DNA from: Saccharospirillum sp.
Lineage (GTDB): Bacteria > Pseudomonadota > Gammaproteobacteria > Pseudomonadales > Natronospirillaceae
Length of the DNA stretch: 64,000 nucleotides
NCBI RefSeq assembly: GCF_039982735.1
Contig: NZ_JBDWXV010000003.1
Span: 76,898-140,897 of the forward strand
Reading direction: 5' to 3'
This document shows, piece by piece, positions 1,025 to 23,407 of the stretch. Position 1 is the stretch's first letter. The number at the start of each line of letters is the position of its first letter. The notes beneath the pieces were generated by a model that saw only the letters and a list, made by a program, of their open reading frames with translations, searched no databases and was not told the origin of the DNA. Position numbers and translations under genes: made by a program.

Positions 1025-1037
1025 GAGAACCCGCACA

Positions 1038-1832: not shown

Positions 1833-1862
1833 ATCCTTTAACCGACCTGACGGAGAACGGAC

Positions 1863-3329: not shown

Positions 3330-3356
3330 CAACACCCCTGTTTCAGAGGACATCGT

Positions 3357-8187: not shown

Positions 8188-8586
8188 TTAATGCTTGTGA
8201 CCACAGCTACCGCCTGAACCATGGCTGTGACCGCAGCTGCCGCCGTGACTGTGGCTATGTCCTTTAGCCGACCCGGTACTGACACCCCCGTGCACGGTGC
8301 GTCTACTGTTGACCGAGCCATAGACCGGGGTTTCCCGGCTATTGCTGTACATCTGTTGTGCTAGTGCAACGTTAGAGGCACAACCACAGGCAGTGGCAGC
8401 GGCACTTTTGTAGTTGACCTGGACGTGCTTTTTGAGCCCTTTCATGTGCAGTGCCGGAGCACCCATGATAACGCGCTCCAACAATTCTCCCGTCTCCGGA
8501 TGAGAGGTCAGTGCCGGGTCATGAATGCTGTGGGAGATCTCAAAGATCTCCCCGGAGTCGGTTGCCCGATAGGTGTAGGTAGGCAT
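8188..8586 (-). CDS. FmdB-like zinc-ribbon protein lacking canonical Cys, with His/Cys-rich tail
   Basis: MPTYTYR...GEIFEISHSIHD...HPETGELLERVI matches the FmdB pattern without the CxxC pairs. C-terminus is GHSHSHGGSCGHSHGSGGSCGHKH. Lies 22 nt downstream of the M24 gene. Confidence 0.75.
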   Translation of the reverse strand: MPTYTYRATDSGEIFEISHSIHDPALTSHPETGELLERVIMGAPALHMKGLKKHVQVNYKSAAATACGCASNVALAQQMYSNSRETPVYGSVNSRRTVHGGVSTGSAKGHSHSHGGSCGHSHGSGGSCGHKH

Positions 8587-8608
8587 AGTGTTTCCTCAAT
8601 TCCAATAC

Positions 8609-9913
8609 TTAATAGGGGTTCGCCACGAACAGATCCTGGGCTGGGAAAAGCGTGATGACCCGACAGCCATCAGCCGTCACCACAACTTCCTCTTCGATAC
8701 GGGCGGCGCCATTGCCATCTGCTGCCGGGCAGTAGGTCTCAAGGGCGAACACCATGCCTTCCTGCAGTTCAAACGGGTTCTCAAAGGAAACCAGTCGGCT
8801 GATGATGGGACGCTCATGAAGCGCAAGTCCAAGTCCATGCCCGAACTGCAGACCAAAGGCTTCCATTTCGCTTTGAAAGCCAAACTCGGTTGCTGCCGGC
8901 CATACGGCTGCAATCTTATCGGTGGTCATCCCCGGTCTGACCAGGTTAATAGCAGCGTCGATCCATTCGCGGGCTTTGCGATAGGCATCCACCTGGGCAA
9001 GCGTTTTACTGCCCACATTCAGCGTTCGGTAATAACAGGTGCGATAACCCATGTAAGACTGGATGATGTCAAAAAAAGCCTGATCGCCCGGACGATACAT
9101 GCGATCAGTAAAGTTATGTGGGTGTGGGCTGCAACGCTCCCCTGATACAGCGTTTATCGCCTCTACATCGTCCGACCCATTGTCATAAAGAAACTTGTTG
9201 GCGATGGCAACGAGCTCGTTCTCTCGTTTGCCTGGTTTCAGGTTGTCCGCTATCAACTGGTAACATCCATCGACCATCGATGCTGACTGATTCAGCAGGA
9301 TGATCTCATCCATGCTTTTGATCTGACGTGCATTCAGCATCACTTGCTGTACATCTCGAACATCGAGCCCTTGCTTTTGCAAGGCGAACAACATGGGCGG
9401 TTCACAGACATCCACACCGATGGGCATATCGGCAACCCCTTCGGACTGAAGAATATCGCGAATTTCTTTTGCCGCATTTTCGAATAGCCCGGCTTCTTCA
9501 GCCACGGAACCGCGCAAGCCCAACATGCCGGCACGCCAGTGATCGTTATCGAACCAGGGGTTATTCAATCGGTGGTGTGCCGCGGCACTGCCAAAGTCCC
9601 ACAGATAAGGGTCGGAATTACCCGTAAACAAGGCATACCGGCATATTTTGTCCCGCGACCACTCACCAATGACGCTGCTGGTGAGGTAACGAATGTTGTT
9701 GTTGTCGAAACACAACATGGCACCCAGGTCAGACTCACGAAGTGCCTGTCTGGCGCGTTCCACGCGATACTTGTGCAAACGTTTGAAGTCGACACGTTCT
9801 TCAAAATCAACATTCATACGCCCGGGTGCCGGTATAGGACGGCTCCAATCCCAGCGGGGGTCAAGTGCGTCGGTGTCAATGATGCTCGGCTCTACAATAA
9901 TGTTGTTACTCAT
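8609..9913 (-). CDS. M24 (Xaa-Pro peptidase/creatinase-like) metallohydrolase
   Basis: Creatinase-like N-domain plus pita-bread domain: FDIIQSYMGYRTC, GHGLGLALHERP, FALETY, RIEEEVVVT. Start moved to the ATG at 9913 (GAGAGG RBS). Confidence 0.88.
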   Translation of the reverse strand: MSNNIIVEPSIIDTDALDPRWDWSRPIPAPGRMNVDFEERVDFKRLHKYRVERARQALRESDLGAMLCFDNNNIRYLTSSVIGEWSRDKICRYALFTGNSDPYLWDFGSAAAHHRLNNPWFDNDHWRAGMLGLRGSVAEEAGLFENAAKEIRDILQSEGVADMPIGVDVCEPPMLFALQKQGLDVRDVQQVMLNARQIKSMDEIILLNQSASMVDGCYQLIADNLKPGKRENELVAIANKFLYDNGSDDVEAINAVSGERCSPHPHNFTDRMYRPGDQAFFDIIQSYMGYRTCYYRTLNVGSKTLAQVDAYRKAREWIDAAINLVRPGMTTDKIAAVWPAATEFGFQSEMEAFGLQFGHGLGLALHERPIISRLVSFENPFELQEGMVFALETYCPAADGNGAARIEEEVVVTADGCRVITLFPAQDLFVANPY

Positions 9914-9978
9914 GGTATTCCTCTCGCCCACGGTGTTGTGCCTGGCCACATCCCGGCACTTCACCACAGTGTCTTTGG

Positions 9979-11481
9979 TTATTTTGGTGTGATTCCGGAG
10001 ATCGCCTGGATCAGCTTATCTTCCGTTACATCTTCTGAGGTGAACGTTTTTATTATTTCGCCTGAGTACATGGCAACGATTCGGTCGGCAACATGCAATA
10101 CTTCGGGCATTTCCGAACTGATCACGATAACGGCGTAGCCACCGGCTGCGAGCTCCCGTATCAGCTTGTGAATTTCGGACTTGGAGCCTACGTCTATGCC
10201 TCGCGTTGGCTCATCAACAATCAGGACTTTCGGATGCATTGACAACCACTTGCCAATGACGATCTTCTGCTGGTTACCACCGGAGAGATTGCCCACGGTT
10301 TGTCGCCAGCCCGGTGTGCGAATATCCAGCCGATCCCGATACAGGTCGAAAAGCGCTACTTCTGCACCATCGGATACGAAAGGCCCTGCTTTCATGTCAT
10401 CAATCTGTGGCAACGTCATGTTGTCGCGACAGTTCATGCCAAGCACCAGGCCTTGCGTTTTACGGTCTTCAGGAACCAGGGAAATCCCTTCTCTAATAGC
10501 AGTAGCAGGCGAATTGATGACTGTTTCTTTGCCTTCCAGAAAGATCGCTCCTGAACTGGGTTGTCTGAGTCCAAACAGTGTTTCCGCTATTTCCGTTCTG
10601 CCCGCGCCCACCAAACCGTAAAACCCCAGGACTTCGCCGCACCGAACCTGAAAGCTAACGTTGTGGAATGAAGCCCCACAACTGAGATCTTTAACCTCAA
10701 TGGCAATCTCACCCAGCTCATGGTTAACAGGAGCACGGGACAAGTCGAGATTACGGCCAATCATCATTCGAGTAATGGCTTCCTCAGTGGTATCCGCCGT
10801 CAACACAGAATCCTGATACTGGCCGTCACGGAGCACACTGACCCGGTCGGTAATCTTGAAAATCTCCTCCATGCGATGGGATATATAAACAATGCCAACC
10901 CCCTGGCTCTTCAAGTCGTCGATTACTTCAAACAGGACCAGCTTCTCGGCATCGGTCAGTGAGGCGGTTGGTTCATCGAAAATCACCGCTTTGGCGTCCA
11001 CCGTCAAAGCCCGTGCAATCTCGACCATTTGCTGGTTGGCAATGGATAAATCCCCGACCCGGGTACGCGCATCGAAGTTCACTTTCAGGCGTGTTAGAAT
11101 CCCATCGGTTTTTTCAAAGAGTGTTTTCCAATCAACCCGACCCATCGACTTTCTCGGTAACTCACCCAGGTACACGTTTTCTGCCACAGACAGCTCTTCA
11201 GCGAGGCTGAGCTCCTGATGGATAAAAACGATGCCCTTATTCTTGGCATCGAGCGGGTTGGACATGACAACCGGCGTTTCAGCAACGTAGATCGTTCCAG
11301 CATCGGGTTGATAGATTCCGCCGAGTACTTTCATCAGCGTCGATTTTCCGGCACCGTTCTCTCCCATCAGCGCATGAACTTCACCTGCCATCACAGAAAG
11401 AGATACGTTATCGAGCGCCTTAACACCCGGAAATGCTTTGACAATGCCCTCCAGACGCAGGGCTGGCGTTGACTGAGTCAT
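9979..11481 (-). CDS. sugar ABC transporter ATP-binding protein (RbsA/CUT2 type)
   Basis: GENGAGKS Walker A, LSIANQQ, DEPT, and a second domain with LSGGNQQK and DEPTRGID. Confidence 0.95.
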   Translation of the reverse strand: MTQSTPALRLEGIVKAFPGVKALDNVSLSVMAGEVHALMGENGAGKSTLMKVLGGIYQPDAGTIYVAETPVVMSNPLDAKNKGIVFIHQELSLAEELSVAENVYLGELPRKSMGRVDWKTLFEKTDGILTRLKVNFDARTRVGDLSIANQQMVEIARALTVDAKAVIFDEPTASLTDAEKLVLFEVIDDLKSQGVGIVYISHRMEEIFKITDRVSVLRDGQYQDSVLTADTTEEAITRMMIGRNLDLSRAPVNHELGEIAIEVKDLSCGASFHNVSFQVRCGEVLGFYGLVGAGRTEIAETLFGLRQPSSGAIFLEGKETVINSPATAIREGISLVPEDRKTQGLVLGMNCRDNMTLPQIDDMKAGPFVSDGAEVALFDLYRDRLDIRTPGWRQTVGNLSGGNQQKIVIGKWLSMHPKVLIVDEPTRGIDVGSKSEIHKLIRELAAGGYAVIVISSEMPEVLHVADRIVAMYSGEIIKTFTSEDVTEDKLIQAISGITPK

Positions 11482-12482
11482 ACTTTTAACTCCTGTGCGC
11501 CCTTCACGTTGAGCTGGCGATCAATGAACAGAACCACAATCAGGATAAGGCCGAGAACCAGATTCACGGTTGAGGTATCAGCCCCAATGTAGCCCAGCCC
11601 TGTTCGCAGCAACTGGATAGCAATGACCCCTCCCAGGGTACCGATGATCGAGCCCGAACCACCGGCCAGCTTGGTACCACCCAGCACCACGGCGGTGATG
11701 ACCCACAATTCATACAACATGCCGTCATTCGGGTTTACCGAGCCCGATCCGGCGTAGAAAACGACCGCAGACAAGGCAGCCAGAAAGCCTATTAGCGCAA
11801 AATTGATCAACATATGCGGGCCTACCCGAATGCCTGCGTTGACGGCCGCATTCCGGTTGTCGCCTATCGCATACGCATTACGCCCGTGGACTGTGTAGCG
11901 GGTGATCAGCCAAACAACCAGAACGGTCAGCCCAAACACCCAGGTGGCTGTGTGTAATCCAAGAAATCGAGCCTCGGCAAGGTCGACCAGCGTCCAGTTG
12001 AGGTTTGACGTTGGGTTTTCACCGTTGAACATAAATACAAGACCACGATAGCCCAACATGGAACCCAGAGTGACGATGAAGGCATCGACGCCTGTCTTCC
12101 ACACGATCAACCCGTTTAAAGCGCCAAGTAAAACCCCGGTGGTCAAAGCAAGTAATACACTGGCAACAATTACCCAGTCGCCAATGCCCGAGAAAATACT
12201 CCAGGACAAACTGTCCAGCAGGATAATTCCCGCCATGGCAAAGATGGCCCCAACGCTCAAGTCAATGTTTCCGTTCACCATGACAATGGTCATACCGACA
12301 GCAATGATGCCAATGGGAGCGGACTGTTTGAGCAGAAGTAACATGTTTCCGCCATCCATGAACGCGACATCCGTTAACGACAAGTATTTTCCCGCAATAC
12401 TGAAAAATATGAGCTCAACAACAATGAACAACCAAATTGCGCTCGTGCTTAGGTTGCGTTTTATAAAATCAGAATTCATCAC
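11478..12482 (-). CDS. sugar ABC transporter permease (CUT2)
   Basis: Multiple TM helices; IDLSVG, FIVTLG, GRNAYAIGDN, AVVLGG motifs. Confidence 0.92.
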   Translation of the reverse strand: MMNSDFIKRNLSTSAIWLFIVVELIFFSIAGKYLSLTDVAFMDGGNMLLLLKQSAPIGIIAVGMTIVMVNGNIDLSVGAIFAMAGIILLDSLSWSIFSGIGDWVIVASVLLALTTGVLLGALNGLIVWKTGVDAFIVTLGSMLGYRGLVFMFNGENPTSNLNWTLVDLAEARFLGLHTATWVFGLTVLVVWLITRYTVHGRNAYAIGDNRNAAVNAGIRVGPHMLINFALIGFLAALSAVVFYAGSGSVNPNDGMLYELWVITAVVLGGTKLAGGSGSIIGTLGGVIAIQLLRTGLGYIGADTSTVNLVLGLILIVVLFIDRQLNVKGAQELKV

Positions 12483-12488
12483 CCGCTC

Positions 12489-13460
12489 CTATATCGTGGC
12501 CCAGAACTTGCCACGCTTGACTGAGATATCGAGCCACACCGCCAGGATGATAATGATCCACGTGATGACATACTGGATATAGAAGGGCCACCCAATCAGC
12601 AGGAGTCCGTTTTGAATGAAACCCAGAATCAATACGCCGATGACTGTCTTGAGAACCGTACCTGAACCCCCCAGAAGCGATGCACCTCCGAGAATGACAG
12701 CCGCGAGCACTTCCAGCTCCAGGCCTTGGCCAACCGTATTTTGGCTACCCATTGAACGACTGGCCTGAATCAACCCGGCCGTTGCCACGCAAAACGCTGA
12801 AATGAGATAACAGGTAAATACGGTACGGGCTCTGGGTATGCCAGAAAAAGACGCGGCGGTTGAGTTGCCACCGACGGCATAAACCTTCCTTCCGAACGGA
12901 GTTTTTGCCAGGAGTACGCCAAGAAATGCAGCCAGTGCGACAAACAGGATAATCGGCACGGGCAAGCCAAGAATTTCCCCCTGCCCGAAGAAGCTGAACC
13001 AGGTGCCTGCTTTGTCGTCAATATCCATGTTCTTACCGCCTGAATAGGTCAGCGTCAGTCCATGGATGGCCGAGAGCATGCCAAGGGTTACAATCAGGGA
13101 GTTGAGTCGTAGATAACCAACCAGGAAACCGATGGTCCCGCCCAAACCGAGTGTCATTAAGTACATGGTTGGAATGGCCAGGCTGGGCCCTAATTTATCG
13201 TGCAGATCAAGCACCACAATCGTGGAGAAAGACATCATGGAGCCGACCGACAAGTCGAGATTCCCGCTGATGACGACAAAGGTCACGCCAAGAGCCATCA
13301 CACCCAGAATCGCCGATGATCTGACCACGCTTTGTAGATTGTCCAACGACAGAAACTTGGGACTAGCAAGCGCAAAAACCACCATAAACACCACGAATGC
13401 GATGAGAATGCCTTGATTGCCAATCACCGTAAGAATTCGTTTTCTGGCTAGATTTGCCAT
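12489..13460 (-). CDS. sugar ABC transporter permease (CUT2)
   Basis: LDLSVGS, LIVTLG, FGRKVYAVGGN, AAVILGG motifs. Confidence 0.92.
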   Translation of the reverse strand: MANLARKRILTVIGNQGILIAFVVFMVVFALASPKFLSLDNLQSVVRSSAILGVMALGVTFVVISGNLDLSVGSMMSFSTIVVLDLHDKLGPSLAIPTMYLMTLGLGGTIGFLVGYLRLNSLIVTLGMLSAIHGLTLTYSGGKNMDIDDKAGTWFSFFGQGEILGLPVPIILFVALAAFLGVLLAKTPFGRKVYAVGGNSTAASFSGIPRARTVFTCYLISAFCVATAGLIQASRSMGSQNTVGQGLELEVLAAVILGGASLLGGSGTVLKTVIGVLILGFIQNGLLLIGWPFYIQYVITWIIIILAVWLDISVKRGKFWATI

Positions 13461-13504
13461 ATGGGTATCCCTGAAACCGTATTGTTTTTATTAAGGTTAA
13501 AGAG

Positions 13505-13537
13505 TGCCCCAGGCATTCGATTGAACGCCTTGGGGCA
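13505..13537 (-). promoter_or_regulatory. stem-loop between SBP and permease genes (mRNA stabiliser or partial terminator)
   Basis: TGCCCCAGGC...GCCTTGGGGCA hairpin with one bulge, in the SBP-permease spacer. Confidence 0.5.
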
Positions 13538-13589
13538 TTGACTTTTGGGAGTTTTAGGGCACCACTGGGCACCCCACCCAAAACCGGTA

Positions 13590-14543
13590 TCAGAATACTG
13601 GACGGGTAAACTCATCCATATTGTCTTGAGTGATTTTCGGCGTATCGAAATAGTTCAGGAAAGGAACGTCATTTCCTTCCAGAATTTCAATGGCGGTCAG
13701 CAGAGCCGCTTCTGCGTCATCTACAGGAGACTGGTAGATTGAACCCCAATAGTCGCCTTCAGCCATGGCATCGTAGCCGACAGAGAAATTGGTGGCGCCA
13801 ACGAAAATGATGCCATCGCGACCTGCTGCGCGAGCAGCGTTCAGTGCGCCAACACCCATGTTGTCGTCGCCTGAATAGACGCCGTCGATGTCATCGTACT
13901 TGGTCAAGAAGGCTTCCATCACCTGTTGAGACCGCTCCCGGTTCCAGTCACCAGGTTGCGTTTCCATCAGGTCTACATTGGGGCAAACCTCGGGCAGACG
14001 GTCCTCAAAACCAGCCGCACGTTCAATAGCCGTGGTGTAACCAGGTTGTCCTGAGATTTGTACAACTTTGGCTTCGTTCTCGATCCCCATGTCCTTGAAC
14101 TTGTCGCACATGATCTCGGCAGAGCGGCTGCCCTGGGTCACGTTATCCGGACCTGAGAAGGAGCGAATGAAATCAAAGCCCTGTTCAGCAATGTTTGAGT
14201 TGGTTACAACCACAGGGATACCGGCATTGTGGGCTCTGCGGACGGCCGGAATGACAGCTTCGCCATTGGTTGGCCAGATGATAATCGCGTCAACTTCCTG
14301 TTGAATGAGTGAATCCACCTGGGCAATTTGACGTGCAACATCACCCCCGGCGTCAAGCACGACGGCGCGAACCTCATCATTGGCGTCTGCGGCCGCGATA
14401 AAGGCGCTTTCATAGGTCGTCTGGTAGCTATCAACACCCACGTTATTCTGTGTGATACCAATTCTCATTTCGGCCACCGCCAGGGCTGGACCCATTAACA
14501 CGGTGGCAGTTACAGCGGTTGCTAGTAGTGTTTTAGTGCTCAT
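13590..14543 (-). CDS. sugar ABC transporter periplasmic binding protein (RbsB-like)
   Basis: Signal peptide, DAGGDVARQIAQV, VDAIIIWP, IPVVVTN, SGDDNMGVGA. Rich in acidic residues. Confidence 0.92.
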   Translation of the reverse strand: MSTKTLLATAVTATVLMGPALAVAEMRIGITQNNVGVDSYQTTYESAFIAAADANDEVRAVVLDAGGDVARQIAQVDSLIQQEVDAIIIWPTNGEAVIPAVRRAHNAGIPVVVTNSNIAEQGFDFIRSFSGPDNVTQGSRSAEIMCDKFKDMGIENEAKVVQISGQPGYTTAIERAAGFEDRLPEVCPNVDLMETQPGDWNRERSQQVMEAFLTKYDDIDGVYSGDDNMGVGALNAARAAGRDGIIFVGATNFSVGYDAMAEGDYWGSIYQSPVDDAEAALLTAIEILEGNDVPFLNYFDTPKITQDNMDEFTRPVF

Positions 14544-14678
14544 TTTTACTCTCCGTTATTTTTGTTCTGCTTTACTGCGTTACTGCTGCATCAGCTCGGT
14601 CAACGGCAAGTTACGCATTCCCAGTTTGAAACGGGCTGGATAACCATACCCCCGGCCGCATGTTGAAAAACCCCCCAA

Positions 14679-14753
14679 TATATCCAGTTTGGATATACCA
14701 TATCCATTTTGGACATCATAATGGTTAATATACTTACGCTCTCGGAGTATATT
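14679..14753. promoter_or_regulatory. divergent promoter region with tandem palindromic operators
   Basis: TATATCCA-GTT-TGGATATA (14679-14697, perfect), ATATCCA-TTT-TGGACAT (14700-14716, one mismatch), and AATATACT-N11-AGTATATT (14727-14753, perfect). Confidence 0.65.
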
Positions 14754-14825
14754 CAGTTCCCTAATAAGAACTAATTGCGGTCCACTGCATTTCAGTCGGC
14801 CCAGGCTAGGCACGGAGCGGTCTTT

Positions 14826-16571
14826 ATGTCGTCAATGCACCACAACTCGGTAGACAGAATTTCGGTGTTGGCCGCCCCGGATGAAGGCGTATTGCGCTTC
14901 CTCGACTACATGGACGAGCACATGCTGGCCTTCGAGTCGGCTCATTCACTGTTCAAACCGAATGCCCATATTCGTATGTGTGTTGAGCTCCTGAGGCGTC
15001 ATTTTCAGGGAAAAGTCACCTCGCCAACGCTGCTGATCGATATCAGTGGCGTACCCTATGCCACCGCTACCCGCCGGTTAAATGAACTGGTCGAATCAGG
15101 CTTGATTAACCGCAGAGCGCGCCACAAAAGCGAACGCAGCTTCACCTTGCACCCCAGCGATCAGCTTCTGTCTCTCTGGATCCAAATGGCCAAAGACAAC
15201 AACCTGCTGATCAACAGTACGGTCAATCTGGCGGATCAAAAGCATGAGCCCGACGAACGTTTCTTTGGCAGTGACTACTTCACTGAACGCCTGGGGCCAC
15301 CGCTGAATGTGCTGAGTACACCCCTGTCTCTGGCCGGCGGCCTGCGTATGCTGTCGCACAGCGACCCTACCTTCCTGATCATGAACAACCTCAAACGTCA
15401 TTTCGAACTGATTGTTGGCTGCCCCATCCATCACCGTTCCTACTCCCTGGATAAGCTGTATGACGAAGCTGTTGAAAATTCGAGTCGTGACAAAAGCAGT
15501 TACGATCTGGTTGCAGTGAACTTCCCGTGGATTGGCGAATTTGCCGAGCGCGGCATGCTATTGCCACTGGATACACTGATCGACATCGAGGCACTGAGCC
15601 CGACAGACTTTCACGCAGCCAGCTGGCGGGCATCCCACTGGGGTGGCCGTTGCTATGGCATTCCGGTAGAGACGACCTCCGAAGTATTGATGTACCGGAC
15701 CGATCTCTTTGCTCAGGAAGGCATTGAGCCGCCTACCACGATCGATGAGTTGTTAGCCGTTGCGGAAAAACTGCATAAACCGGAAAAGCAGATCTATGGT
15801 ATCGCCTGGAACGCAGCGAGAGGCACCGCGCTGAGCCATACCTTTATGATGGCGATGGCCGATTTTGGTCAACCGATCATTGATTTGGCCCCGGATGGCG
15901 AAGAGTTTTCAATTGCGGGCCTGGGCAGTCACAAGTATCGATCAATGATCGATTCAGAGGCGGGCCTGTCTGCTGCAAGATTCCTGCTGGAGCTTCTGAA
16001 GTACTCGCCTCCGGGCATTCTGAACATGTCCTGGTATGAGCGCACCAAAAGTTATGCCCAGGGCCAGGTCGCAATGACCTACAGTTTTTCCCAGATGACG
16101 CCCTACTTCGAAGATGACGACAATTCCCCGGCCAAAGACAATACCGGCTTCATCGCGCACCCGGCCGGTTCGGGCAAGAAACCCATTTCTCCACTGGGCG
16201 GCTTTGTGCTGGGCATTCCCAGCAATTTAAGCGAGCGGCGCAGGCAGGAAGCCGCCATCGCACTGGAAACATTCACCTCAGAACGGGCTCAGAGCCTCTA
16301 TGTCAAAAATGGCAGCCGCGGTTGTTCACGGTATTCGGCGAGCGAAGACCCCAACATCCGCATTAACTCACCGATCTTCGATGCGGTGGACCAATTGGCC
16401 ATTCAGGACCAACTGCAGGCATGGCCAAGACCACCCACTCCCGAGTTTGGCGCGATAACCCAGTTCTGCGGCGTTGTATTGCACGAAATGCTGCGCGGGG
16501 TCATCACACCCGAAGAGGCCCTGTCTCGGGCTCACGAAGGTGTCCAAAAACTCATCGAAAACTGGCAATAA
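14826..16571 (+). CDS. winged-helix DNA-binding domain fused to family-1 solute-binding domain (probable one-component regulator)
   Basis: N-terminal SGVPYATATRRLNELVESGLINRR helix-turn-helix/wing, then an SBP_bac_1-like domain (YDLVAVNFPWIGEFA, YGIPVET, LMYRTDLF, GQVAM). No signal peptide. Start moved to the ATG at 14826. Confidence 0.75.
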   Translation: MSSMHHNSVDRISVLAAPDEGVLRFLDYMDEHMLAFESAHSLFKPNAHIRMCVELLRRHFQGKVTSPTLLIDISGVPYATATRRLNELVESGLINRRARHKSERSFTLHPSDQLLSLWIQMAKDNNLLINSTVNLADQKHEPDERFFGSDYFTERLGPPLNVLSTPLSLAGGLRMLSHSDPTFLIMNNLKRHFELIVGCPIHHRSYSLDKLYDEAVENSSRDKSSYDLVAVNFPWIGEFAERGMLLPLDTLIDIEALSPTDFHAASWRASHWGGRCYGIPVETTSEVLMYRTDLFAQEGIEPPTTIDELLAVAEKLHKPEKQIYGIAWNAARGTALSHTFMMAMADFGQPIIDLAPDGEEFSIAGLGSHKYRSMIDSEAGLSAARFLLELLKYSPPGILNMSWYERTKSYAQGQVAMTYSFSQMTPYFEDDDNSPAKDNTGFIAHPAGSGKKPISPLGGFVLGIPSNLSERRRQEAAIALETFTSERAQSLYVKNGSRGCSRYSASEDPNIRINSPIFDAVDQLAIQDQLQAWPRPPTPEFGAITQFCGVVLHEMLRGVITPEEALSRAHEGVQKLIENWQ

Positions 16572-16653
16572 CAACAACGCAGTAACACGGAAATTTTAAA
16601 ACCAATAGACGGTTAACAACCCACTTCAAACAACAACAAGACTGGAGAGAAAA

Positions 16654-17463
16654 ATGGATCCGAAAAGACTGGCAGGAAAAAACATCGTCATCACCGGTGC
16701 AGCTCAAGGTATGGGCGCAGCAAATGCCATGTACTTTGCCGCGCAAGGCGCCAACGTGGTACTGGGCGATTTGAATCTCGACGGTGCTCAAGCCGTGGCC
16801 GAGAGTATCAATGCAGCCGGCGTAGGCAAAGCCGTTGCAGTGTCCATGAACGTCACCAAACGCGAAGACCACACAGCCGCGGTTCAAGCCTGTGTTGATG
16901 CCTTTGGTTCAATCAATGTTTATCTGAACAATGCGGGTGTGAACAAGCCCAAGATGTTTCTGGACATTGATGACGACAACTGGGACCTGATCATGAATGT
17001 CAACGCCAAGGGTGTGCTCTATGGCATGCAGGAAGCGACTAAGCAAATGATCAAGCAAGGCCCAATGGAGGATCACCCGTACAAGATCATCAACGTTGGT
17101 AGCATTCTGTCCCGTGCCGCCTTTCTGGACGTCATCCCCTACTCTTGCTCGAAACATGCGGTGCTGGCCATGACTACGGGCGGTGCTAAAGCGCTCTGGG
17201 AGCATAAGATCACGGTTAACGGCTACGGCCCCGGGGTTGTAAAAACCGAATTGTGGGAACAACTGGACAAAGACCTGGTCGAGATCGGGATGTTTGAGAA
17301 AGAAGGCCAGTCGATGGACCACCTGGCCGAAACCATGATTCTGATGAAAAAACTGTCAACACCGGATGATGTCATCGGCACCGCAGCCTTCCTGTGCTCG
17401 GATGAAAGTGACTACATGACCGGCCAGCTACTGATGATTGATGGCGGCATCATCATGCAGTAA
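16654..17463 (+). CDS. classical SDR, acetoin/diacetyl reductase or polyol dehydrogenase-like
   Basis: TGAAQGMG, NNAG, catalytic YSCSK, PGVVKTELW, YMTGQLLMIDGG. Confidence 0.92.
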   Translation: MDPKRLAGKNIVITGAAQGMGAANAMYFAAQGANVVLGDLNLDGAQAVAESINAAGVGKAVAVSMNVTKREDHTAAVQACVDAFGSINVYLNNAGVNKPKMFLDIDDDNWDLIMNVNAKGVLYGMQEATKQMIKQGPMEDHPYKIINVGSILSRAAFLDVIPYSCSKHAVLAMTTGGAKALWEHKITVNGYGPGVVKTELWEQLDKDLVEIGMFEKEGQSMDHLAETMILMKKLSTPDDVIGTAAFLCSDESDYMTGQLLMIDGGIIMQ

Positions 17464-17643
17464 AGCCAACCGGCAATCAGCGCAGTACCCTGAGACACAG
17501 CGATCAGGCAGACAGGCTCTAACCTGACCGTTCCCGGTACTGCGCTGCGGCCACCTGGCTTGATGCACTTGCCCTCAATTTTCGCCATGCCGGACTTGCT
17601 GGCCGATGTCACAGAGCCGCCTGACCAACCACAGAGGTTTGCA

Positions 17644-18645
17644 ATGAGTAACTCGAAGAAAAAATTGAGTGCGGACGAAGCGTTGAGAATGTTTCGCCAG
17701 ATGGTTCGTATACGCACCTTTGAAAATAACGCGAATCAGCTCTATTTATCGGCAAAAATGCCCGGACTGACACACATGTATTCCGGGGAAGAAGCGGTCG
17801 CTGTTGGCATTTGTGAAGCACTGCTGCCAACCGACAAGATTACATCGACCCACCGCGGCCATGGCCACTGCGTAGCCAAAGGCGCAGACTTTAAAGCCAT
17901 GTTCTGTGAGTTGCTCGGAAAGGAAGAGGGCTATTGCCGTGGTAAGGGCGGCTCCATGCACATTGCGGATCAGTCAAACGGAAACCTTGGCGCCAATGCG
18001 ATTGTCGGCGGCTCGATGGGTATCGCAACCGGAGCAGCACTGACCTCCAAATTGAAGAAGACGGGCGATGTTGCCGTTTGTTTCTTCGGCGATGGTGCTA
18101 CCGCCCAGGGGTTAATGTACGAAGTGATGAACATGGCTGCCCTATGGAACCTTCCGGTCATCTACGCCTGTGAAAACAATGGCTATTCGGAGTACACAAA
18201 AACTGAAGAAATTGCAGCCGGCTCCATTACGGCTCGAGCTGAAGCCTTTGGAATTGAATCGTATCAGGTCGATGGGCAGGACGTTATAGCCGTTAACGAG
18301 CTGTCGCAAAAACTGGTCGATCGAGCTCGAAAAGGTGAAGGGCCTTTTTTCCTCGAACTGATGACCTACCGGTACCACGGTCACCATGTGGGCGATATTA
18401 ACCGTGAGTATTATCGTGCCAAGGATGAAGAAGCAGACTGGAAGGAAAACCGGGACCCAATCATTCGCATGCGCGCCTGGCTGGTTGACAACGGATATGC
18501 CACAGAGGAGGCATTGGATGAGCTTCACAAAGAAGTGACAGAAGATGCCGAGAATGCAGTCGAATATGCACTGAACGCCCCCTACCCGGATGTCTCGGAG
18601 GTGGACATGCACGTCTACACCGATATTGAGCATGTCTTAGCCTGA
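17644..18645 (+). CDS. TPP-dependent dehydrogenase E1 alpha subunit (AcoA/PdhA-like)
   Basis: GEEAVAVG, HRGHGH, GKGGSMH, GDGA...ENN TPP motif, TYRYHGH. Start moved to the ATG at 17644. Confidence 0.93.
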   Translation: MSNSKKKLSADEALRMFRQMVRIRTFENNANQLYLSAKMPGLTHMYSGEEAVAVGICEALLPTDKITSTHRGHGHCVAKGADFKAMFCELLGKEEGYCRGKGGSMHIADQSNGNLGANAIVGGSMGIATGAALTSKLKKTGDVAVCFFGDGATAQGLMYEVMNMAALWNLPVIYACENNGYSEYTKTEEIAAGSITARAEAFGIESYQVDGQDVIAVNELSQKLVDRARKGEGPFFLELMTYRYHGHHVGDINREYYRAKDEEADWKENRDPIIRMRAWLVDNGYATEEALDELHKEVTEDAENAVEYALNAPYPDVSEVDMHVYTDIEHVLA

Positions 18646-18655
18646 GGAGAACAGT

Positions 18656-19651
18656 ATGCGGAAAATTACGTTATCAAAGGCCGTCAACGAAGCACTGGCT
18701 GAAGAGATGCGCCACGACGAGACGGTCATCATTCTCGGCGAAGACGTGGCAGAAGCCGGTACGCCGTTCAAGGTTCTATCAGGCCTGGTCGAAGAGTTTG
18801 GTACGGAACGCGTTATTGATACCCCCATTTCCGAACCCGGCTTTATGGGTATTGGGGTAGGTGCCGCCATGACGGGGATGCGTCCGGTTGTCGATTTGAT
18901 GTTCGGTGACTTTATTTTTCTGATCATGGATCAGCTTTGCAACCAGGCCGCTAAAACTCACTACATGTCCGGTGGCAAACTGAGTGTCCCTCTGGTGCTG
19001 CGCACCAACATGGGGGCAACACGGCGCTCAGCGGCCCAGCATTCACAGTCGTTACACGCCATTGTTGCTCATATACCGGGCTTGAAAGTAGCGATGCCGT
19101 CTTCTGCGTATGAAGCCAAGGGCCTGCTGAAAACGGCCATTCGCGACAATAACCCGGTGGTCATTTTCGAAGACAAGCTGATGTATCAGGACTCAGCCGA
19201 AGTCCCTGAAGAGGAGTACAGCATTCCTTTCGGTGAAGCCTGCGTGAAACGCGAAGGCACAGACATCACCCTCATCGGCACCTCGTCGATGGTTCAGGTC
19301 TGTGAGAAAGCCGCTGAAATGCTTCAGGCGGTGGGCATCAGTGCCGAAGTCATCGACCCCCGCACCATAGTACCGCTCGATGAAAAAACCCTGGTTGAAT
19401 CGGCCAAGAAGACCGGTCGGGTCATCGTGGTTGACGAAGGTCACCAGAGCTTTGGTGTGACCTCTGAAATCGCCAGCCGGATCAATGAAAAAGCCTTTTA
19501 TCATCTGGATGCACCCACCACCCGAATCGGGGCGATGGATGTTCCGATTCCGTTCTCACCGGCCCTGGAGGACATTACTGTTCCGACACCGGAGCGGGTG
19601 TTCGAACAGGCCAAAAAGCTGGTCAGCGGGGAGCTAATCGATGCGGCATGA
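18656..19651 (+). CDS. TPP-dependent dehydrogenase E1 beta subunit (AcoB/PdhB-like)
   Basis: GEDVAEAG, DTPISE, QHSQSL, IPGLKV, GLLKTAIRDNNPV, EVIDPRT. Confidence 0.93.
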   Translation: MRKITLSKAVNEALAEEMRHDETVIILGEDVAEAGTPFKVLSGLVEEFGTERVIDTPISEPGFMGIGVGAAMTGMRPVVDLMFGDFIFLIMDQLCNQAAKTHYMSGGKLSVPLVLRTNMGATRRSAAQHSQSLHAIVAHIPGLKVAMPSSAYEAKGLLKTAIRDNNPVVIFEDKLMYQDSAEVPEEEYSIPFGEACVKREGTDITLIGTSSMVQVCEKAAEMLQAVGISAEVIDPRTIVPLDEKTLVESAKKTGRVIVVDEGHQSFGVTSEIASRINEKAFYHLDAPTTRIGAMDVPIPFSPALEDITVPTPERVFEQAKKLVSGELIDAA

Positions 19652-20954
19652 CATCATCATGCCCGCGTTGGGCATGGCACAGGATACCGGAACCCTGCTC
19701 GCCTGGCACAAATCGGAGGGTGAGGCGGTAACTCAGGGTGAAACCCTATTCGAGGTGGAAACCGACAAAACCACCATGGAAGTGGAGGCGCCGGCCAGCG
19801 GCTTCCTGGTTGGCATTACGGCCAGTGACGGGGATGAGGTACCGGTGGGCCAGGTCATCGCCATCATCAGCGATTCGGCCGACACACCGGCCAAGGAACC
19901 TGACGCTGGAACCGAGTCTGCCAAAGCGGACGCCCCCGCGCAGGCCCTGCCAGAAGGTAAGCCGGTTATCATGCCCGTGCTCGGCATGTCTCAGGACTCG
20001 GGCGTGCTGGTCGGGTGGAACAAGGAACCCGGTGACGCCGTCAAACAGGATGACATTTTGTTCGAAGTGGAAACGGACAAAAGTGTGGTTGAGGTGCCTG
20101 CTGGCCTGGATGGCTACCTGGCTGCCCGACTGGCGGCCGCTGGCGATGACGTACCCACGGGTGAAACCATCGCCATTATCAGTGAAGGAAAGGTCGCTGA
20201 CCCGGTTGACCGGGCTTATTCGCAATCGGCTACAACAACCGCCAGTACCGAAGAGCCGCCGGCCGAACAGGCGGCAACGCCCGCCGACACATCGCCTGCG
20301 CCCAAAAAGCCAGAAACCGCCAAGCGGCCTGCGCCTGCACCGGGTGATAAAATACTGGCCTCTCCCAAGTTGAAGCGCCTGGCCTACCAGGCTGGCTACG
20401 ACCTGGCGTTGCTCGCCGCCACGGGTCACCCCCAACCCTTTCATGCCAGCGACTTTACAGCGCTCAAAGACGCTAATACATCGGCACACAAACGCACAGG
20501 AACGGCCGTAACCCATGAAGCGGTTACCCGGCTGTCCGCACGGGTATCACCGGTTGAACTCGACGCCTTTCTTGGCTGGGCTTCCGACCATGTTGAAGCG
20601 GCCAACGACGCGAGTGTCATTGCTGCCTTTGCCGGGGCCAGCCTGGGCGATCATTCGACGGTGCGAATTCACAGGCGAGGCATCAGTGAAACCTATGCTG
20701 CACACACGCAATTGTCGAAAACCGTGGCCACGGAAGGCGAGCCTGACCTGATCGTACACGATCTGCGGGGAACCCTAATATCCTCGGCGGAACTCCCACC
20801 CGACTCGGCTCCTGTCATCTCTATTGTGGGCTCTGGCAATGAATTGATACTGACACTGACCAGTATTGATTCTCTGTTGGCCGGAAAAGACGCCGCCGTC
20901 GTACTCGACAACTTTGCCGGACGCATGGCAGATCCACTTCGGCACCTCTTCTAA
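19641..20954 (+). CDS. di-lipoyl carrier protein with PSBD and degenerate E2 core-like C-terminus
   Basis: Two lipoyl domains (EVETDKTTME, EVETDKSVVE), Ala/Pro linkers and PSBD (ILASPKLKRLA). The short C-terminal domain ends like an E2 (NFAGRMADPLRHL) but has no DHRxxxG. Confidence 0.8.
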   Translation: MRHDIIMPALGMAQDTGTLLAWHKSEGEAVTQGETLFEVETDKTTMEVEAPASGFLVGITASDGDEVPVGQVIAIISDSADTPAKEPDAGTESAKADAPAQALPEGKPVIMPVLGMSQDSGVLVGWNKEPGDAVKQDDILFEVETDKSVVEVPAGLDGYLAARLAAAGDDVPTGETIAIISEGKVADPVDRAYSQSATTTASTEEPPAEQAATPADTSPAPKKPETAKRPAPAPGDKILASPKLKRLAYQAGYDLALLAATGHPQPFHASDFTALKDANTSAHKRTGTAVTHEAVTRLSARVSPVELDAFLGWASDHVEAANDASVIAAFAGASLGDHSTVRIHRRGISETYAAHTQLSKTVATEGEPDLIVHDLRGTLISSAELPPDSAPVISIVGSGNELILTLTSIDSLLAGKDAAVVLDNFAGRMADPLRHLF

Positions 20955-20968
20955 AGAAAGGTATTGGT

Positions 20969-22426
20969 ATGTCACAACATAACGATTTCATCAAAACGGT
21001 TCCAACCGACCTTTATATCAATGGTCAGTTTGTTTCAGCGTCTGAAAATGGCCGCTTTGGCGTATTTAATCCGGCGACGGAAGAAGCGCTGGCATCCGTC
21101 GCATCAGCAGAAATTGCTGACGCCGATGCTGCCCTTGATGCCGCTGAAAAAGCCATGGTTGAGTGGGCAGCAAGAACACCGCGTGAACGCTCAGAAGTGC
21201 TTCGAAAAGCCTGGGAGTTGATTCAGGATCGGCTCGAAGAGTTCGCCTATCTGATCACACTGGAAAACGGCAAAGGTAAAACCGATGCCATGGGCGAAAT
21301 TCGCTATGCCGCCGAATTCTTTCGCTGGTTCGCGGAAGAAGCCGTTCGGGCAGACGGCCTGATTGCCCATGCACCGGCTTCCGGCGCAAGAATCATCGTG
21401 CAACACAAGCCCGCGGGCTTAGCTGTGCTGGTCACACCCTGGAATTACCCGGCCGCGATGGGCACCCGGAAAATTGCGCCTGCGCTGGCCGCCGGCTGCG
21501 GTGTCATTATCAAACCCGCCGCTGAAACACCGCTGACGATGCTGGCACTGATGCCATTGCTTGAAGAGGCGGGTGTACCGGCGGGTCTGGTAAACGTCTT
21601 GCCCACCAGTAAGCCAGCCGAGGTTGTCGATCATATGATGCACGACCCTCGCGTTCGTGTTGTGTCTTTCACAGGCTCAACAGCGGTTGGTCGCAAGCTG
21701 CTCAAATCAGCGGCGGATCAGGTACTCACGCCCGCAATGGAGCTTGGTGGCAATGCCCCTGTCATCGTATTCGAAGATGCCGATATGGATACCGCCATTG
21801 AAGGCGTGATGCTCGCCAAAATGCGCAACCTGGGTGAAGCCTGTACAGCTGCCAACCGGGTTTACGTGCATAAAGATGTGGCTGACGAATTCACCAAACG
21901 CCTGACGCAAACAATGTCGGCGTTAAAGATCGGTAATGGTGCAGACCCGGATGTTGACGTAGGTGCACTGGTTAATCTGGATACGCTTGAAAAGGTGGTG
22001 GGCTTTGTCAACGATGCGGTCGCGAAAGGCGCCAAAGTAGAATGTGGCGGACAGCGGCTACCAGGAAAAGGCTTTTTCTTTCCGCCAACGGTGCTCTCCA
22101 ATGTGCCGGAAAACGCTGACTGTGTGCACGATGAAATATTTGGGCCGGTCGTTGCCATTCAAACATTCGAAGATCAGGACGACGTGATTCGCCGGGCAAA
22201 CGATACCGAGTATGGCCTTGTGGCCTACGTTTTTTCCGAAAACATGAAGCGTGCCATGCAAGTATGCGAACGGCTGGACTACGGCATGGTCGGCCTGAAC
22301 CGTGGCCTTGTCAGCGACCCGGCTGCTCCGTTTGGTGGCAGTAAACAATCCGGCCTTGGTCGTGAGGGCGGTCATGAAGGCATGCTGGAATTCATGGAAA
22401 CCCAGTACATCTCGGCAACCTGGTAA
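20969..22426 (+). CDS. NAD(P)-dependent aldehyde dehydrogenase, succinate-semialdehyde dehydrogenase (GabD) type
   Basis: TPWNYP, KPAAETP, SFTGST, MELGGNAP, GEACTAAN, DEIFGPV, PFGGSKQSG. Confidence 0.92.
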   Translation: MSQHNDFIKTVPTDLYINGQFVSASENGRFGVFNPATEEALASVASAEIADADAALDAAEKAMVEWAARTPRERSEVLRKAWELIQDRLEEFAYLITLENGKGKTDAMGEIRYAAEFFRWFAEEAVRADGLIAHAPASGARIIVQHKPAGLAVLVTPWNYPAAMGTRKIAPALAAGCGVIIKPAAETPLTMLALMPLLEEAGVPAGLVNVLPTSKPAEVVDHMMHDPRVRVVSFTGSTAVGRKLLKSAADQVLTPAMELGGNAPVIVFEDADMDTAIEGVMLAKMRNLGEACTAANRVYVHKDVADEFTKRLTQTMSALKIGNGADPDVDVGALVNLDTLEKVVGFVNDAVAKGAKVECGGQRLPGKGFFFPPTVLSNVPENADCVHDEIFGPVVAIQTFEDQDDVIRRANDTEYGLVAYVFSENMKRAMQVCERLDYGMVGLNRGLVSDPAAPFGGSKQSGLGREGGHEGMLEFMETQYISATW

Positions 22427-22443
22427 AGAGAGAGGATGTTCGC

Positions 22444-23325
22444 ATGCACACTGTTGTTGCATCACCAAGCGTTCGAGCGCAAGCGCGTCGCTTATCGATC
22501 GATCTTCAAGCTCTGGCCGACCGACTGGGCAGAACCCAACTTACCATGGATGACCTCAACGGCCATCAGACACCGGAGCAGCCTGTGAACGGTTATAGCA
22601 GCTATTGGAACGTGGATCACCGTCAATTCGGACCGGTTGACGAGCAAAAGACCAGCAAAATCGACCGGGTTGCCGCTGCGAATTTGACCGCTGCCAATGC
22701 GGTGATTCCCCAGGTCACTCATCACGATGAGGTGGATGTCAGTGAAATCGAACGCCTACGCGCTCAGTATCGCAGTGAATCCTCCGCACGAGGGGTGAAA
22801 CTGACGACACTGCCTTTCTTCGTGAAGGCATTGGCCGTTTCATTGAAAAAGTTTCCAAAGTTCAATGCGTCCCTGAGTTCAGACGGTGACATCCTCCATA
22901 TGAAGAACTACGTTCATATCGGCATTGCAGTGGATACCGAACACGGACTGATGGTCCCGGTTATTCGGGATGCTGACAAAAAAGGCTTGTGGCAGATTGC
23001 GGCAGAGATCGTCGATCTGGCAACCCGCGCCAAGTCGAGAAAGCTGGGCCCGGATGAAATGGGGGGTGCCTCCATGACGATCACCAATCTTGGGGGAATA
23101 GGCGGTACTGGTTTCAGCCCAATCGTAAACCCGCCAGAGGTTGCGATTCTGGGTATTACCCGTATGCAGCAACAACCGGTATGGAATGGCGAAGCCTTCG
23201 TTGCAACACCGATAGTGCCACTGGACTTGAGTTATGATCATCGCGTCATTAACGGTGCCGTTGCCGCCCGTTTTCTCAATGACTATGCACGCAGCCTGGC
23301 GGACCCTCGTTTACTGTTGATATGA
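22444..23325 (+). CDS. E2 dihydrolipoamide acyltransferase catalytic subunit without lipoyl domains
   Basis: PSBD-like N-terminus (VASPSVRAQARRL), IGIAVDTEHGLMVPVI, ITNLGGIGG, PIVNPPEVAILG, LSYDHRVINGA. Confidence 0.9.
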   Translation: MHTVVASPSVRAQARRLSIDLQALADRLGRTQLTMDDLNGHQTPEQPVNGYSSYWNVDHRQFGPVDEQKTSKIDRVAAANLTAANAVIPQVTHHDEVDVSEIERLRAQYRSESSARGVKLTTLPFFVKALAVSLKKFPKFNASLSSDGDILHMKNYVHIGIAVDTEHGLMVPVIRDADKKGLWQIAAEIVDLATRAKSRKLGPDEMGGASMTITNLGGIGGTGFSPIVNPPEVAILGITRMQQQPVWNGEAFVATPIVPLDLSYDHRVINGAVAARFLNDYARSLADPRLLLI

Positions 23326-23407
23326 AGGGGGTCACCCTTTCGTATACGGTGAGTCAGTGCTGCCTGCTCGGGCGCGCTGTCACCATAACGTGTCCTCGCT
23401 GCAAACG

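Follow-up and report, generated by a model that had tools for sequence, protein, structure and literature searches.

We analysed a 64,000-nt stretch of DNA from Saccharospirillum sp. (the window; contig NZ_JBDWXV010000003.1, positions 76,898-140,897 of the forward strand, assembly GCF_039982735.1), and all positions given here count from the start of the window. Between 8188 and 23325 it holds two divergent operons around a single palindrome-bearing intergenic region, as identified from the open reading frame (ORF) list and from Pfam and NCBIfam matches (Table 1). The left arm encodes an importer and an enzyme of the M24 fold, and the right arm encodes a regulator, a short-chain dehydrogenase/reductase (SDR), a thiamine pyrophosphate (TPP)-dependent E1, a lipoyl protein, an aldehyde dehydrogenase (ALDH) and an E2 core. 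We found all of these parts in the order and on the strands given by a first-pass annotation, which had read the locus as a complete and undescribed catabolic pathway. The word complete proved slightly generous: all named parts are present, but no E3 is encoded in the cluster; the same genome has two lipoamide dehydrogenases above cut-off, both outside it. The locus does appear to be undescribed, as every component except the pyruvate dehydrogenase (PDH) E1 beta falls below the cut-off of its best NCBIfam model, and full-text literature searches, which do not reach closed-access literature, found no paper on this gene cluster. Our analysis suggests that the locus is probably a substrate-inducible catabolic module for a small, probably anionic alcohol, organized around an M24-fold enzyme that we call M24-Cys.

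Table 1. Features of the two divergent operons and of the region between them (window coordinates)
Feature	Position	Strand	Matches and details
Small FmdB-like protein, 132 aa	8188..8586	-	Zn_ribbon_8 32.7 bits, TIGR02605 30.1 bits, both just below cut-off
M24-fold enzyme, 434 aa, M24-Cys family	8609..9913	-	Pfam Peptidase_M24 (PF00557) 121.8 bits
CUT2-type ATPase, RbsA-like, two ABC domains	9979..11481	-	ABC_tran x2; RbsA 565.9 bits (cut-off 745)
CUT2 permease 2	11478..12482	-	BPD_transp_2 126 bits
CUT2 permease 1	12489..13460	-	BPD_transp_2 131 bits
Periplasmic binding protein with signal peptide	13590..14543	-	Pfam Peripla_BP_4 175 bits
Operator-like palindromes	14679..14753		Perfect inverted repeats (8-3-8, 8-11-8) and a phased second copy
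One-component regulator, 581 aa, winged helix-turn-helix (wHTH) + SBP_bac_1	14826..16571	+	SBP_bac_1 99 bits, residues 241-492
SDR alcohol dehydrogenase	16654..17463	+	adh_short 159 bits
TPP-dependent E1 alpha	17644..18645	+	E1_dh 269 bits; PDH_E1_alph_y 350 bits (cut-off 393.85)
E1 beta	18656..19651	+	Transket_pyr + Transketolase_C; NF006667 394 bits (cut-off 321)
Lipoyl carrier subunit, 437 aa, two lipoyl domains + peripheral subunit-binding domain (PSBD)	19641..20954	+	Biotin_lipoyl x2
GabD-type NAD(P) ALDH	20969..22426	+	Aldedh 539 bits; succinate semialdehyde dehydrogenase (SSADH) subfamily 548 bits (cut-off 646)
E2 catalytic subunit, 293 aa, PSBD + core	22444..23325	+	2-oxoacid_dh 272 bits; PDHac_trf_long 321.7 bits (cut-off 552)

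For comparison, 80 genome loci and five further contexts were fetched and scored against all window proteins and against genes from the other contexts. The 83 related loci span Gammaproteobacteria, Alphaproteobacteria and SAR324, and 53 of them are fully flanked, having 8 kb or more to either side. In the related loci the two window arms often merge into one operon: in Legionella, Salinisphaera and Marinomonas, among others, the M24 enzyme, SDR, E1 alpha/beta, lipoyl protein and ALDH are encoded together in it, so the two arms are indeed conserved together. The Legionella spiritensis operon reads SDR-M24-small protein-E1a-E1b-lipoyl protein-ALDH-LacI, and in Salinisphaera and Marinomonas the same set is joined by an E2 core and an E3. 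Among the fully flanked loci, the small protein was found in 45, a dehydrogenase in 44, the ALDH in 42 and an E1 in 37 (~70%); in six more Saccharospirillum-type loci the ALDH lies just beyond the 10-kb fetched flank, as it does in the window. We also observed 13 fully flanked loci in which M24 and ALDH occur and E1/E2 is absent from the surrounding 10 kb, among them those of Marinobacter (SDR, groEL, CUT2, LacI, M24, ALDH), those of Rariloculaceae (small protein, M24, ALDH) and a type carrying a tripartite ATP-independent periplasmic (TRAP) transporter and TauE (TRAP, TauE, small protein, M24, ALDH, beta-hydroxyacid dehydrogenase). The invariant core is M24-Cys with its small FmdB-like protein, a GabD-type ALDH and an alcohol dehydrogenase, and E1/E2 is optional. 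Minimal clusters such as that of Marinobacter hold three enzymes (SDR, M24 and ALDH), and the product of three steps would therefore already be a central metabolite; this suggests a small substrate rather than the larger, sugar-like one proposed in the first-pass annotation.

A second full-length groEL stands in or beside the M24 cluster of Psychromonas, Marinobacter, Enterovibrio/Grimontia and Glaciecola (loci L001:2190-3824; L070:16391-18016; L051, L052, L056, L058, L048, L066, L067, L069 and L077). It reaches 668 bits to the GroEL model in Enterovibrio, is ~47-50% identical between lineages, and may be a dedicated chaperonin for a cluster enzyme.

M24-Cys is widespread and strongly conserved. 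A database search returned at least 8000 candidates; the best 120, examined for identity and origin, share 78-99% identity with the window enzyme and originate from Gammaproteobacteria (Salinisphaera, Vibrio, Psychromonas, Legionella and Woeseiaceae among them), Alphaproteobacteria, SAR324 and many marine metagenomes. The homologues in the clusters are 77-99% identical across classes, the window enzyme is 99% identical to that of S. alexandrii, and an alignment of 84 family sequences shows 98% invariance or more at 52% of positions. A Psychromonas genome paper lists the gene merely as "peptidase M24". The protein has the pita-bread M24 fold, seen both in the match to PF00557 and in an AlphaFold2 model (pLDDT 87.9) that aligns with prolidases at a template modelling (TM) score of 0.66-0.72. 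It does not have the canonical dinuclear Asp-Asp-His-Glu-Glu site. The corresponding residues read FFD282...GYRTC293YYRT...GH359G...E392...E407, with His359, Glu392 and Glu407 retained and Cys293 in place of the second (bridging) metal Asp. This Cys was present in 84/84 family members and in 30/30 sequences of a second alignment, eight of which have N, P or S for the first Asp (D282). In relatives at ~30-38% identity, from Chloroflexota and Thermodesulfobacteriota, the Cys, the His and both Glu are likewise invariant, and the first Asp varies. The pattern suggests a changed, perhaps mononuclear, Cys/His/Glu site and fits non-peptidase chemistry. The top fold match of the model in the PDB was the dimethylsulfoniopropionate (DMSP) lyase DddP over its full length (TM 0.79, E 1e-27), followed by prolidases, DoeA and creatinase, and DddP also gave the top full-length NCBIfam match (NF043017, 104.7 bits against a cut-off of 600). 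That score and the gene context, which does not point to DMSP, speak against membership among the DMSP lyases.

The Cys motif, GY-x-[TS]-C-[YV]-YR, marks a wider M24 superfamily (~30-55% identity) in Chloroflexota, Thermodesulfobacteriota and others (L088, L089 and L090; P0124-P0273). Genes beside these distant relatives include TctABC, Liv-type ATP-binding cassette (ABC) transporters and, once, a sulfite-oxidase-family gene, a set of neighbors too heterogeneous to fix one substrate.

The small FmdB-like protein is the constant partner of the M24 enzyme. It lacks the Cys at both CxxC knuckle positions, keeps a AAATACGC motif common to the Saccharospirillum, Psychromonas and Legionella homologues, and ends in a tail rich in His, Cys and Gly; its scores fall short of the FmdB zinc-ribbon cut-offs (30.1 against 31.3 bits for TIGR02605, 32.7 against 34.4 bits for Pfam).

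The ALDH has the catalytic residues Asn159, Glu258 and Cys292, invariant among the cluster ALDHs, and the anion-binding residues Arg167 and Arg286, which align with Arg171 and Arg289 of RlGabD and with the carboxylate-binding arginines of human SSADH. The two RlGabD arginines are proposed to bind sulfonate or carboxylate (10.1101/2023.03.13.532361). By these residues the enzyme is of the GabD type that includes SSADHs and sulfolactaldehyde dehydrogenases (SLADHs), although it misses the TIGR01780 cut-off (548.1 against 646 bits), and its nearest solved structures are SSADHs and RlGabD. The Arg pair is retained in 59/61 cluster ALDHs, which makes it very likely that the aldehyde is anionic, with the charged group three or four atoms away, and argues against a neutral sugar-derived aldehyde. 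For the SDR, the nearest structures are diacetyl reductase/butanediol dehydrogenase and sorbitol dehydrogenase, and it scored 213.7 bits against the acetoin reductase subfamily (TIGR02415), well below the cut-off of 304.35.

The E1/E2 complex is PDH-like. E1 alpha has human PDH E1 alpha as its nearest structures and misses the TIGR03182 equivalog cut-off (350.2 against 393.85 bits), and E1 beta passes that of the PDH E1 beta subfamily NF006667 (394.1 against 321 bits). The lipoyl carrier consists of two lipoyl domains (members of its family have one or two), a linker, a PSBD with an ILASPKA motif and a truncated C-terminal domain of ~150 aa. In the family alignment the end of this domain (...PLRHLL) resembles that of an E2 core, but the catalytic His motif DHRxxDG is missing; the resemblance is one of the alignment, as a BLASTP comparison of this C-terminus with the E2 core was not significant. 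The separate E2 catalytic subunit has a PSBD and an acyltransferase core with the active site DHRVING, and no lipoyl domain. The E2 is thus split, with the ALDH gene between the lipoyl carrier and the lipoyl-less catalytic core, in the window and in Salinisphaera, Marinomonas and Natronospirillum. In Legionella spiritensis, a Thiotrichales genome and locus L019 the cluster has a carrier and no catalytic core.

Three forms of E1 accompany the M24 enzyme: a split form 66-96% identical to the window E1, the split form of Enterovibrio/Emcibacter at 39-47%, and a fused alpha-beta form at 30-35% that is always followed by a VOC-fold gene and then a complete E2. Throughout these loci M24 stays at least 77% identical. 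Such an exchange of E1 around a constant M24 indicates repeated recruitment of a downstream 2-oxoacid module, and the lipoate complex is thus that recruited module and not a step that feeds the ALDH. The VOC/Glyoxalase_4-fold protein (176-182 aa) is without exception encoded between the fused E1 and E2 (23 loci; for example L001:15000-15530 and L006:9311-9850). One SAR324 locus carries an acetolactate synthase (ALS)-type TPP enzyme in place of E1; an Xsc-like role for it is unsupported (253 bits against a cut-off of 676).

These observations bear on the order of steps given by the first-pass annotation, which was modelled on acetoin: M24 hydrolyses a conjugate, the SDR gives an alpha-hydroxyketone, E1/E2 cleaves this to an acyl-CoA and an aldehyde, and the ALDH finally oxidises the aldehyde. 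In its favor, the nearest relatives of the SDR act on secondary alcohols, acetoin dehydrogenase (like PDH) is built from a heterotetrameric E1 alpha/beta and a lipoyl E2, and both the binding protein and the sensor are similar to polyol binders. Yet M24 and ALDH persist in the 13 loci that have no E1/E2, and the ALDH substrate therefore cannot be an E1 cleavage product. The anion-binding Arg pair, the low acetoin-reductase score of the SDR, a cluster with neither AcoR nor AcoX, and the switching of E1 lineage beside an M24 that remains 77-99% identical all point the same way. That order is probably wrong, and we regard the acetoin-like scheme as improbable. Far less probable still is a plain acetoin or 2,3-butanediol system that happens to lie beside an unrelated transporter-peptidase operon. 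The SDR, E1 alpha/beta and lipoyl E2 do look superficially like AcoABC with a butanediol dehydrogenase; however, in many genomes M24 shares one operon with the SDR, E1 and ALDH, all components stay below acetoin-specific cut-offs, the AcoC model matches nothing in the cluster beyond the lipoyl domains, and the regulator is not of the AcoR type. The M24-ALDH pair is the conserved element. That the locus is not a plain acetoin system agrees with the first-pass annotation.

Transport genes divide the loci into two variants. The window has a complete CUT2 carbohydrate ABC importer, comprising a Peripla_BP_4 protein, two BPD_transp_2 permeases and a fused double ATPase, and none of its components reached a substrate-specific equivalog cut-off (best RbsA, 566 against 745 bits). 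Its binding protein is nearest to the Mycobacterium smegmatis CUT2 proteins 4rs3, 5hko and 4rsm (~110 bits), and the sensor domain of the regulator to the sugar-ABC binding protein 5iai (109 bits); the two are thus closest to CUT2/CUT1 sugar-type binding proteins (4rs3, 4rsm, 5iai). The three M. smegmatis proteins are reported to bind polyols, and 4rs3, 4rsm and 5iai to bind xylitol, threitol or ribitol. An SDR was present in 25/25 CUT2-bearing loci and in none of the TRAP loci, 9/11 of which have a beta-hydroxyacid dehydrogenase instead. This is the family of DhpA/YihU; the enzyme of the TRAP variants scored best as a tartronate-semialdehyde reductase, and an L-threonate dehydrogenase model also matched. 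The TRAP binding protein gave ~335 bits to DctP proteins deposited as C4-dicarboxylate-binding, as against ~101 bits to TeaA/UehA. Given sugar/polyol-type binders in one variant and C4-dicarboxylate-type binders in the other, the two seem to take up neutral-looking, polyol-like and diacid-like forms of related compounds. Glutathione S-transferase (GST) genes recur in the TRAP variants. We also considered an HpsK-like TRAP binder and found none among the PDB matches listed; HpsK structures are described in PMC13335735.

Several observations hint at sulfur. TauE/SafE genes of two lineages stand in-operon in 17/83 loci, in both transport variants, about six times more often than the ~3% expected by chance from the eight copies in the 4.7-Mb genome of the window's own strain. 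In three loci we found an Ldh_2 protein with L-sulfolactate dehydrogenase as its best match. The own genome, which is 100% complete, gave no match to the SuyB-type family (PF04295) and no Xsc above cut-off (best Xsc-model match 321 against 676 bits). Its contig C21 carries two HisD-family paralogues (L091:5522-6829 and L091:12802-14112); the second scored 372 bits to the sulfopropanediol 3-dehydrogenase HpsN as against 253 to histidinol dehydrogenase, and its operon includes a CUT1 ABC importer, an SDR, a cupin, an RraA-like protein and an amidase.

The same evidence could be read in terms of an initial hydrolysis, in which M24-Cys would split an ester, amide, lactone or amidine to release an omega-hydroxy acid such as 4-hydroxybutyrate, the dehydrogenase and ALDH would convert this to succinate, and E1/E2, where present, would take the other fragment. 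Genuine SSADHs are the closest match of the ALDH, 4-hydroxybutyrate dehydrogenases are found among the beta-hydroxyacid dehydrogenases, the M24 relatives DoeA and creatinase are C-N hydrolases, and the TRAP binder is of the C4-dicarboxylate type. However, a standard hydrolase is not favored by the altered metal site or by a fold nearer to the lyase DddP than to DoeA and creatinase; polyol-like binding proteins would be unexpected for such conjugates; and the recurrent PDH-like complex and TauE find no role. We consider a hydrolase-first pathway doubtful.

Regulation of the two arms would start from the 282-nt intergenic region between them. It contains a perfect 8-3-8 palindrome, TATATCCA-N3-TGGATATA, at 14679-14697, an imperfect copy of it 20 nt downstream and a perfect 8-11-8 palindrome at 14727-14753. 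The core TATCCA-N3-TGGATA recurs at the equivalent position in six other loci with the same regulator, Marinomonas and Marinobacterium included; one of the six (L015) has a second copy elsewhere as well. In the window the core has five matches at no more than two mismatches, against 1.15 expected. Its recurrence at the equivalent place makes the palindrome a credible candidate operator. The wHTH + SBP_bac_1 regulator was present in 13 related loci, with the CUT2 importer alongside every time. A SmoF-like (sulfoquinovosyl-glycerol) sensor was uninformative, as it appeared as the seventh match at 53 bits. In other lineages LacI-family regulators, present in 32/53 fully flanked loci, replace or accompany the wHTH-SBP regulator.

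From the gene content, co-conservation, residue patterns and fold similarity we infer an order of steps, a lyase chemistry and a substrate. The CUT2 importer would take up a small polyol-like alcohol bearing an anionic group, and the wHTH-SBP protein would sense the imported alcohol and derepress both arms from the common palindromic operators. The SDR would convert the terminal alcohol to an aldehyde, which the ALDH, holding the anionic group with its Arg pair, would oxidise to an alpha-hydroxy acid. M24-Cys would then act in a DddP-like manner, removing the beta substituent by metal-assisted beta-elimination to give a 2-oxoacid. This 2-oxoacid would become an acyl-CoA through the PDH-like E1 alpha/beta and the split E2 (lipoyl carrier and catalytic core), together with an E3 whose gene lies elsewhere. 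We favor this order tentatively, at somewhat less than an even chance.

The leading candidate substrate would be 2,3-dihydroxypropanesulfonate (DHPS), passing through sulfolactaldehyde and sulfolactate to pyruvate and sulfite, with pyruvate going on to acetyl-CoA. Such a route would mirror DhpA/SlaB/SuyAB, with M24-Cys standing in for SuyAB. In that case M24-Cys and its FmdB-like partner would be a new metal-dependent C-S lyase, a sulfolactate/C3-sulfonate sulfo-lyase that replaces SuyAB, CuyA or Xsc, an assignment that is possible but that we would not yet call likely. By analogy, both oxidation steps would use the enzyme families of the DhpA and SlaB steps; DHPS is a sulfonated glycerol, which would fit a polyol-type binder; sulfolactate, as a malate isostere on chemical grounds, would fit the C4-dicarboxylate-type TRAP binder; and the regiochemistry of DddP, a beta-elimination alpha to a carboxylate, would suit sulfolactate. 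Further hints come from the recurrent in-operon TauE/SafE, from the three loci with an Ldh_2 resembling L-sulfolactate dehydrogenase, and from an own genome that has HpsN-like genes but neither SuyB-type nor Xsc. A study of Desulfovibrio sp. DF1 reportedly provides a precedent for the logic of a dehydrogenase, an SLADH and a sulfo-lyase. The VOC and GST genes prompted us to consider another scheme, with M24 converting sulfolactaldehyde to methylglyoxal for the ALDH and the glyoxalase-fold protein; it was set aside because the Arg pair of the ALDH implies an anionic aldehyde.

A number of observations weigh against the sulfonate route. TauE/SafE is a broad family, as its copy number in the own genome attests, and the window's cluster has none; CUT2 systems normally carry neutral sugars or polyols; and among the 60 PDB matches listed for the TRAP binder there is no DHPS-binding or HpsK entry. 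The ALDH scores slightly higher against true SSADHs (442-454 bits) than against RlGabD (408 bits), and Legionella and a Thiotrichales genome have an ALDH of a different lineage that lacks the Arg pair, along with a lipoyl protein that comes without any E2 core. The HpsN-like dehydrogenases in another operon would make a second DHPS route partly redundant, a dedicated PDH-like complex seems superfluous if the product is plain pyruvate, and the VOC/glyoxalase-fold gene, the GST genes and the groEL paralogue have no role in the scheme. Finally, the substrate cannot be read from sequence, and a sulfonate is what we infer for it.

Alternatively, the steps could run in the same order on a sulfur-free substrate, for instance a polyol or sugar acid of size C3-C4 such as threonate, erythronate or tartrate semialdehyde. 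M24-Cys would then be a dehydratase yielding a 2-keto-3-deoxy acid or oxaloacetate for E1/E2. The LacI regulators (32/53), Gfo/Idh/MocA and lactonase-type Amidohydro_2 neighbors and polyol-like binders give the loci a sugar-acid flavor, to which the C4-dicarboxylate-type TRAP binder and the matches of the beta-hydroxyacid dehydrogenase to tartronate-semialdehyde reductase and L-threonate dehydrogenase would add. On the other hand, the enrichment of TauE/SafE would go unexplained, three enzymes, as in the minimal clusters (Marinobacter), would not suffice to channel a C4-C5 polyol into central metabolism, and the Arg pair requires an aldehyde that is already anionic. We rate a sulfur-free substrate as unlikely, though as a stronger contender than either an acetoin-like or a hydrolase-first pathway.

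Within each arm the genes are spaced by 10-129 nt or overlap. The M24 start is most likely the ATG at 9913, which is preceded by a GAGAGG ribosome site and gives the 434 aa of all homologues, and not the GTG at 9967; the probable starts are 17644 for E1 alpha and 14826 for the regulator. An ORF at 23322-23690 that overlaps the E2 stop codon (122 aa, Pro/Arg/Ser-rich) had no match in Pfam, NCBIfam or the homologous loci and is unlikely to be a gene; its place is taken by an E3 gene in Salinisphaera, Marinomonas and locus L018. A chemoreceptor gene flanks the cluster on the left and fatty-acid-type coenzyme A (CoA) genes flank it on the right, which sets the boundaries as given. Beyond the chemoreceptor gene lies a separate upstream operon (230-4991). 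Its products are an SDR, a protein resembling aspartate dehydrogenase, an ALS-type TPP enzyme and a second ALDH, this one without the Arg pair. A related set comes after the M24 locus in the Saccharospirillum metagenome-assembled genome L009.

Four known systems are the nearest. DddP (4s01, 4rzy, 4b28), a non-peptidase M24 enzyme that performs beta-elimination on a small carboxylate and is abundant in marine bacteria, shares with M24-Cys the full-length two-domain architecture and is its best match by both fold and NCBIfam. The two are 22% identical, and M24-Cys differs in its invariant Cys in place of the second metal Asp, in a first Asp that is variable in distant relatives, in its obligatory small FmdB-like partner and in a gene context (ALDH, dehydrogenase, sugar-type or TRAP importers) unlike that of dddP. 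The route formed by DhpA, SlaB/GabD and SuyAB with TauE/SuyZ resembles the cluster in the families of the two oxidation steps (a beta-hydroxyacid dehydrogenase in the TRAP variants and an Arg-pair ALDH), in the recurrent TauE-type exporters and in an end product, pyruvate, that would match a PDH-like complex. In contrast, the third enzyme of the cluster is M24-Cys with its small protein and there is no SuyAB (no PF04295 in the own genome), and the window uses an SDR and a CUT2 ABC importer.

The other two systems are more distant. AcoABC(L)/AcoR has a heterotetramer-type E1 alpha/beta, a lipoyl-bearing E2 and a butanediol-dehydrogenase-related SDR in common with the cluster, which in turn has no sigma-54 AcoR and no E3, a wHTH + SBP_bac_1 regulator, an E2 split around the ALDH gene and an E1/E2 complex that is dispensable for the M24-ALDH core. 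The ectoine route DoeA-DoeB-DoeD-DoeC likewise combines a non-peptidase M24 enzyme with a semialdehyde dehydrogenase and uses a TRAP transporter, as do some cluster variants. However, the cluster has no deacetylase or aminotransferase, DoeA models give the window M24 only 56-60 bits (cut-offs 575-613), and the TRAP binder is of the C4-dicarboxylate type and not TeaA/UehA-like.

Overall, the locus is new as a combination, built from known enzyme families around the uncharacterised and very abundant M24-Cys, and it presents a modular pathway in which importers, dehydrogenases and downstream 2-oxoacid complexes are interchangeable around that enzyme. Even if the sulfonate reading is wrong, the locus is of interest as a tractable test of non-peptidase chemistry at the Cys/His/Glu metal site of an M24 enzyme, for a split E2 whose lipoyl carrier ends in a catalytically dead "pseudo-core", and for a one-component regulator made from a family-1 solute-binding domain with a defined candidate operator. 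With a substrate assigned to M24-Cys, thousands of genes could be annotated. Should the sulfonate reading hold, M24-Cys would represent a new class of C-S cleaving enzymes and a missing piece of marine organosulfur cycling, and the cluster would constitute an unrecognised, widespread marine route from DHPS or sulfolactate through pyruvate and sulfite to acetyl-CoA in Gammaproteobacteria, Alphaproteobacteria and SAR324.

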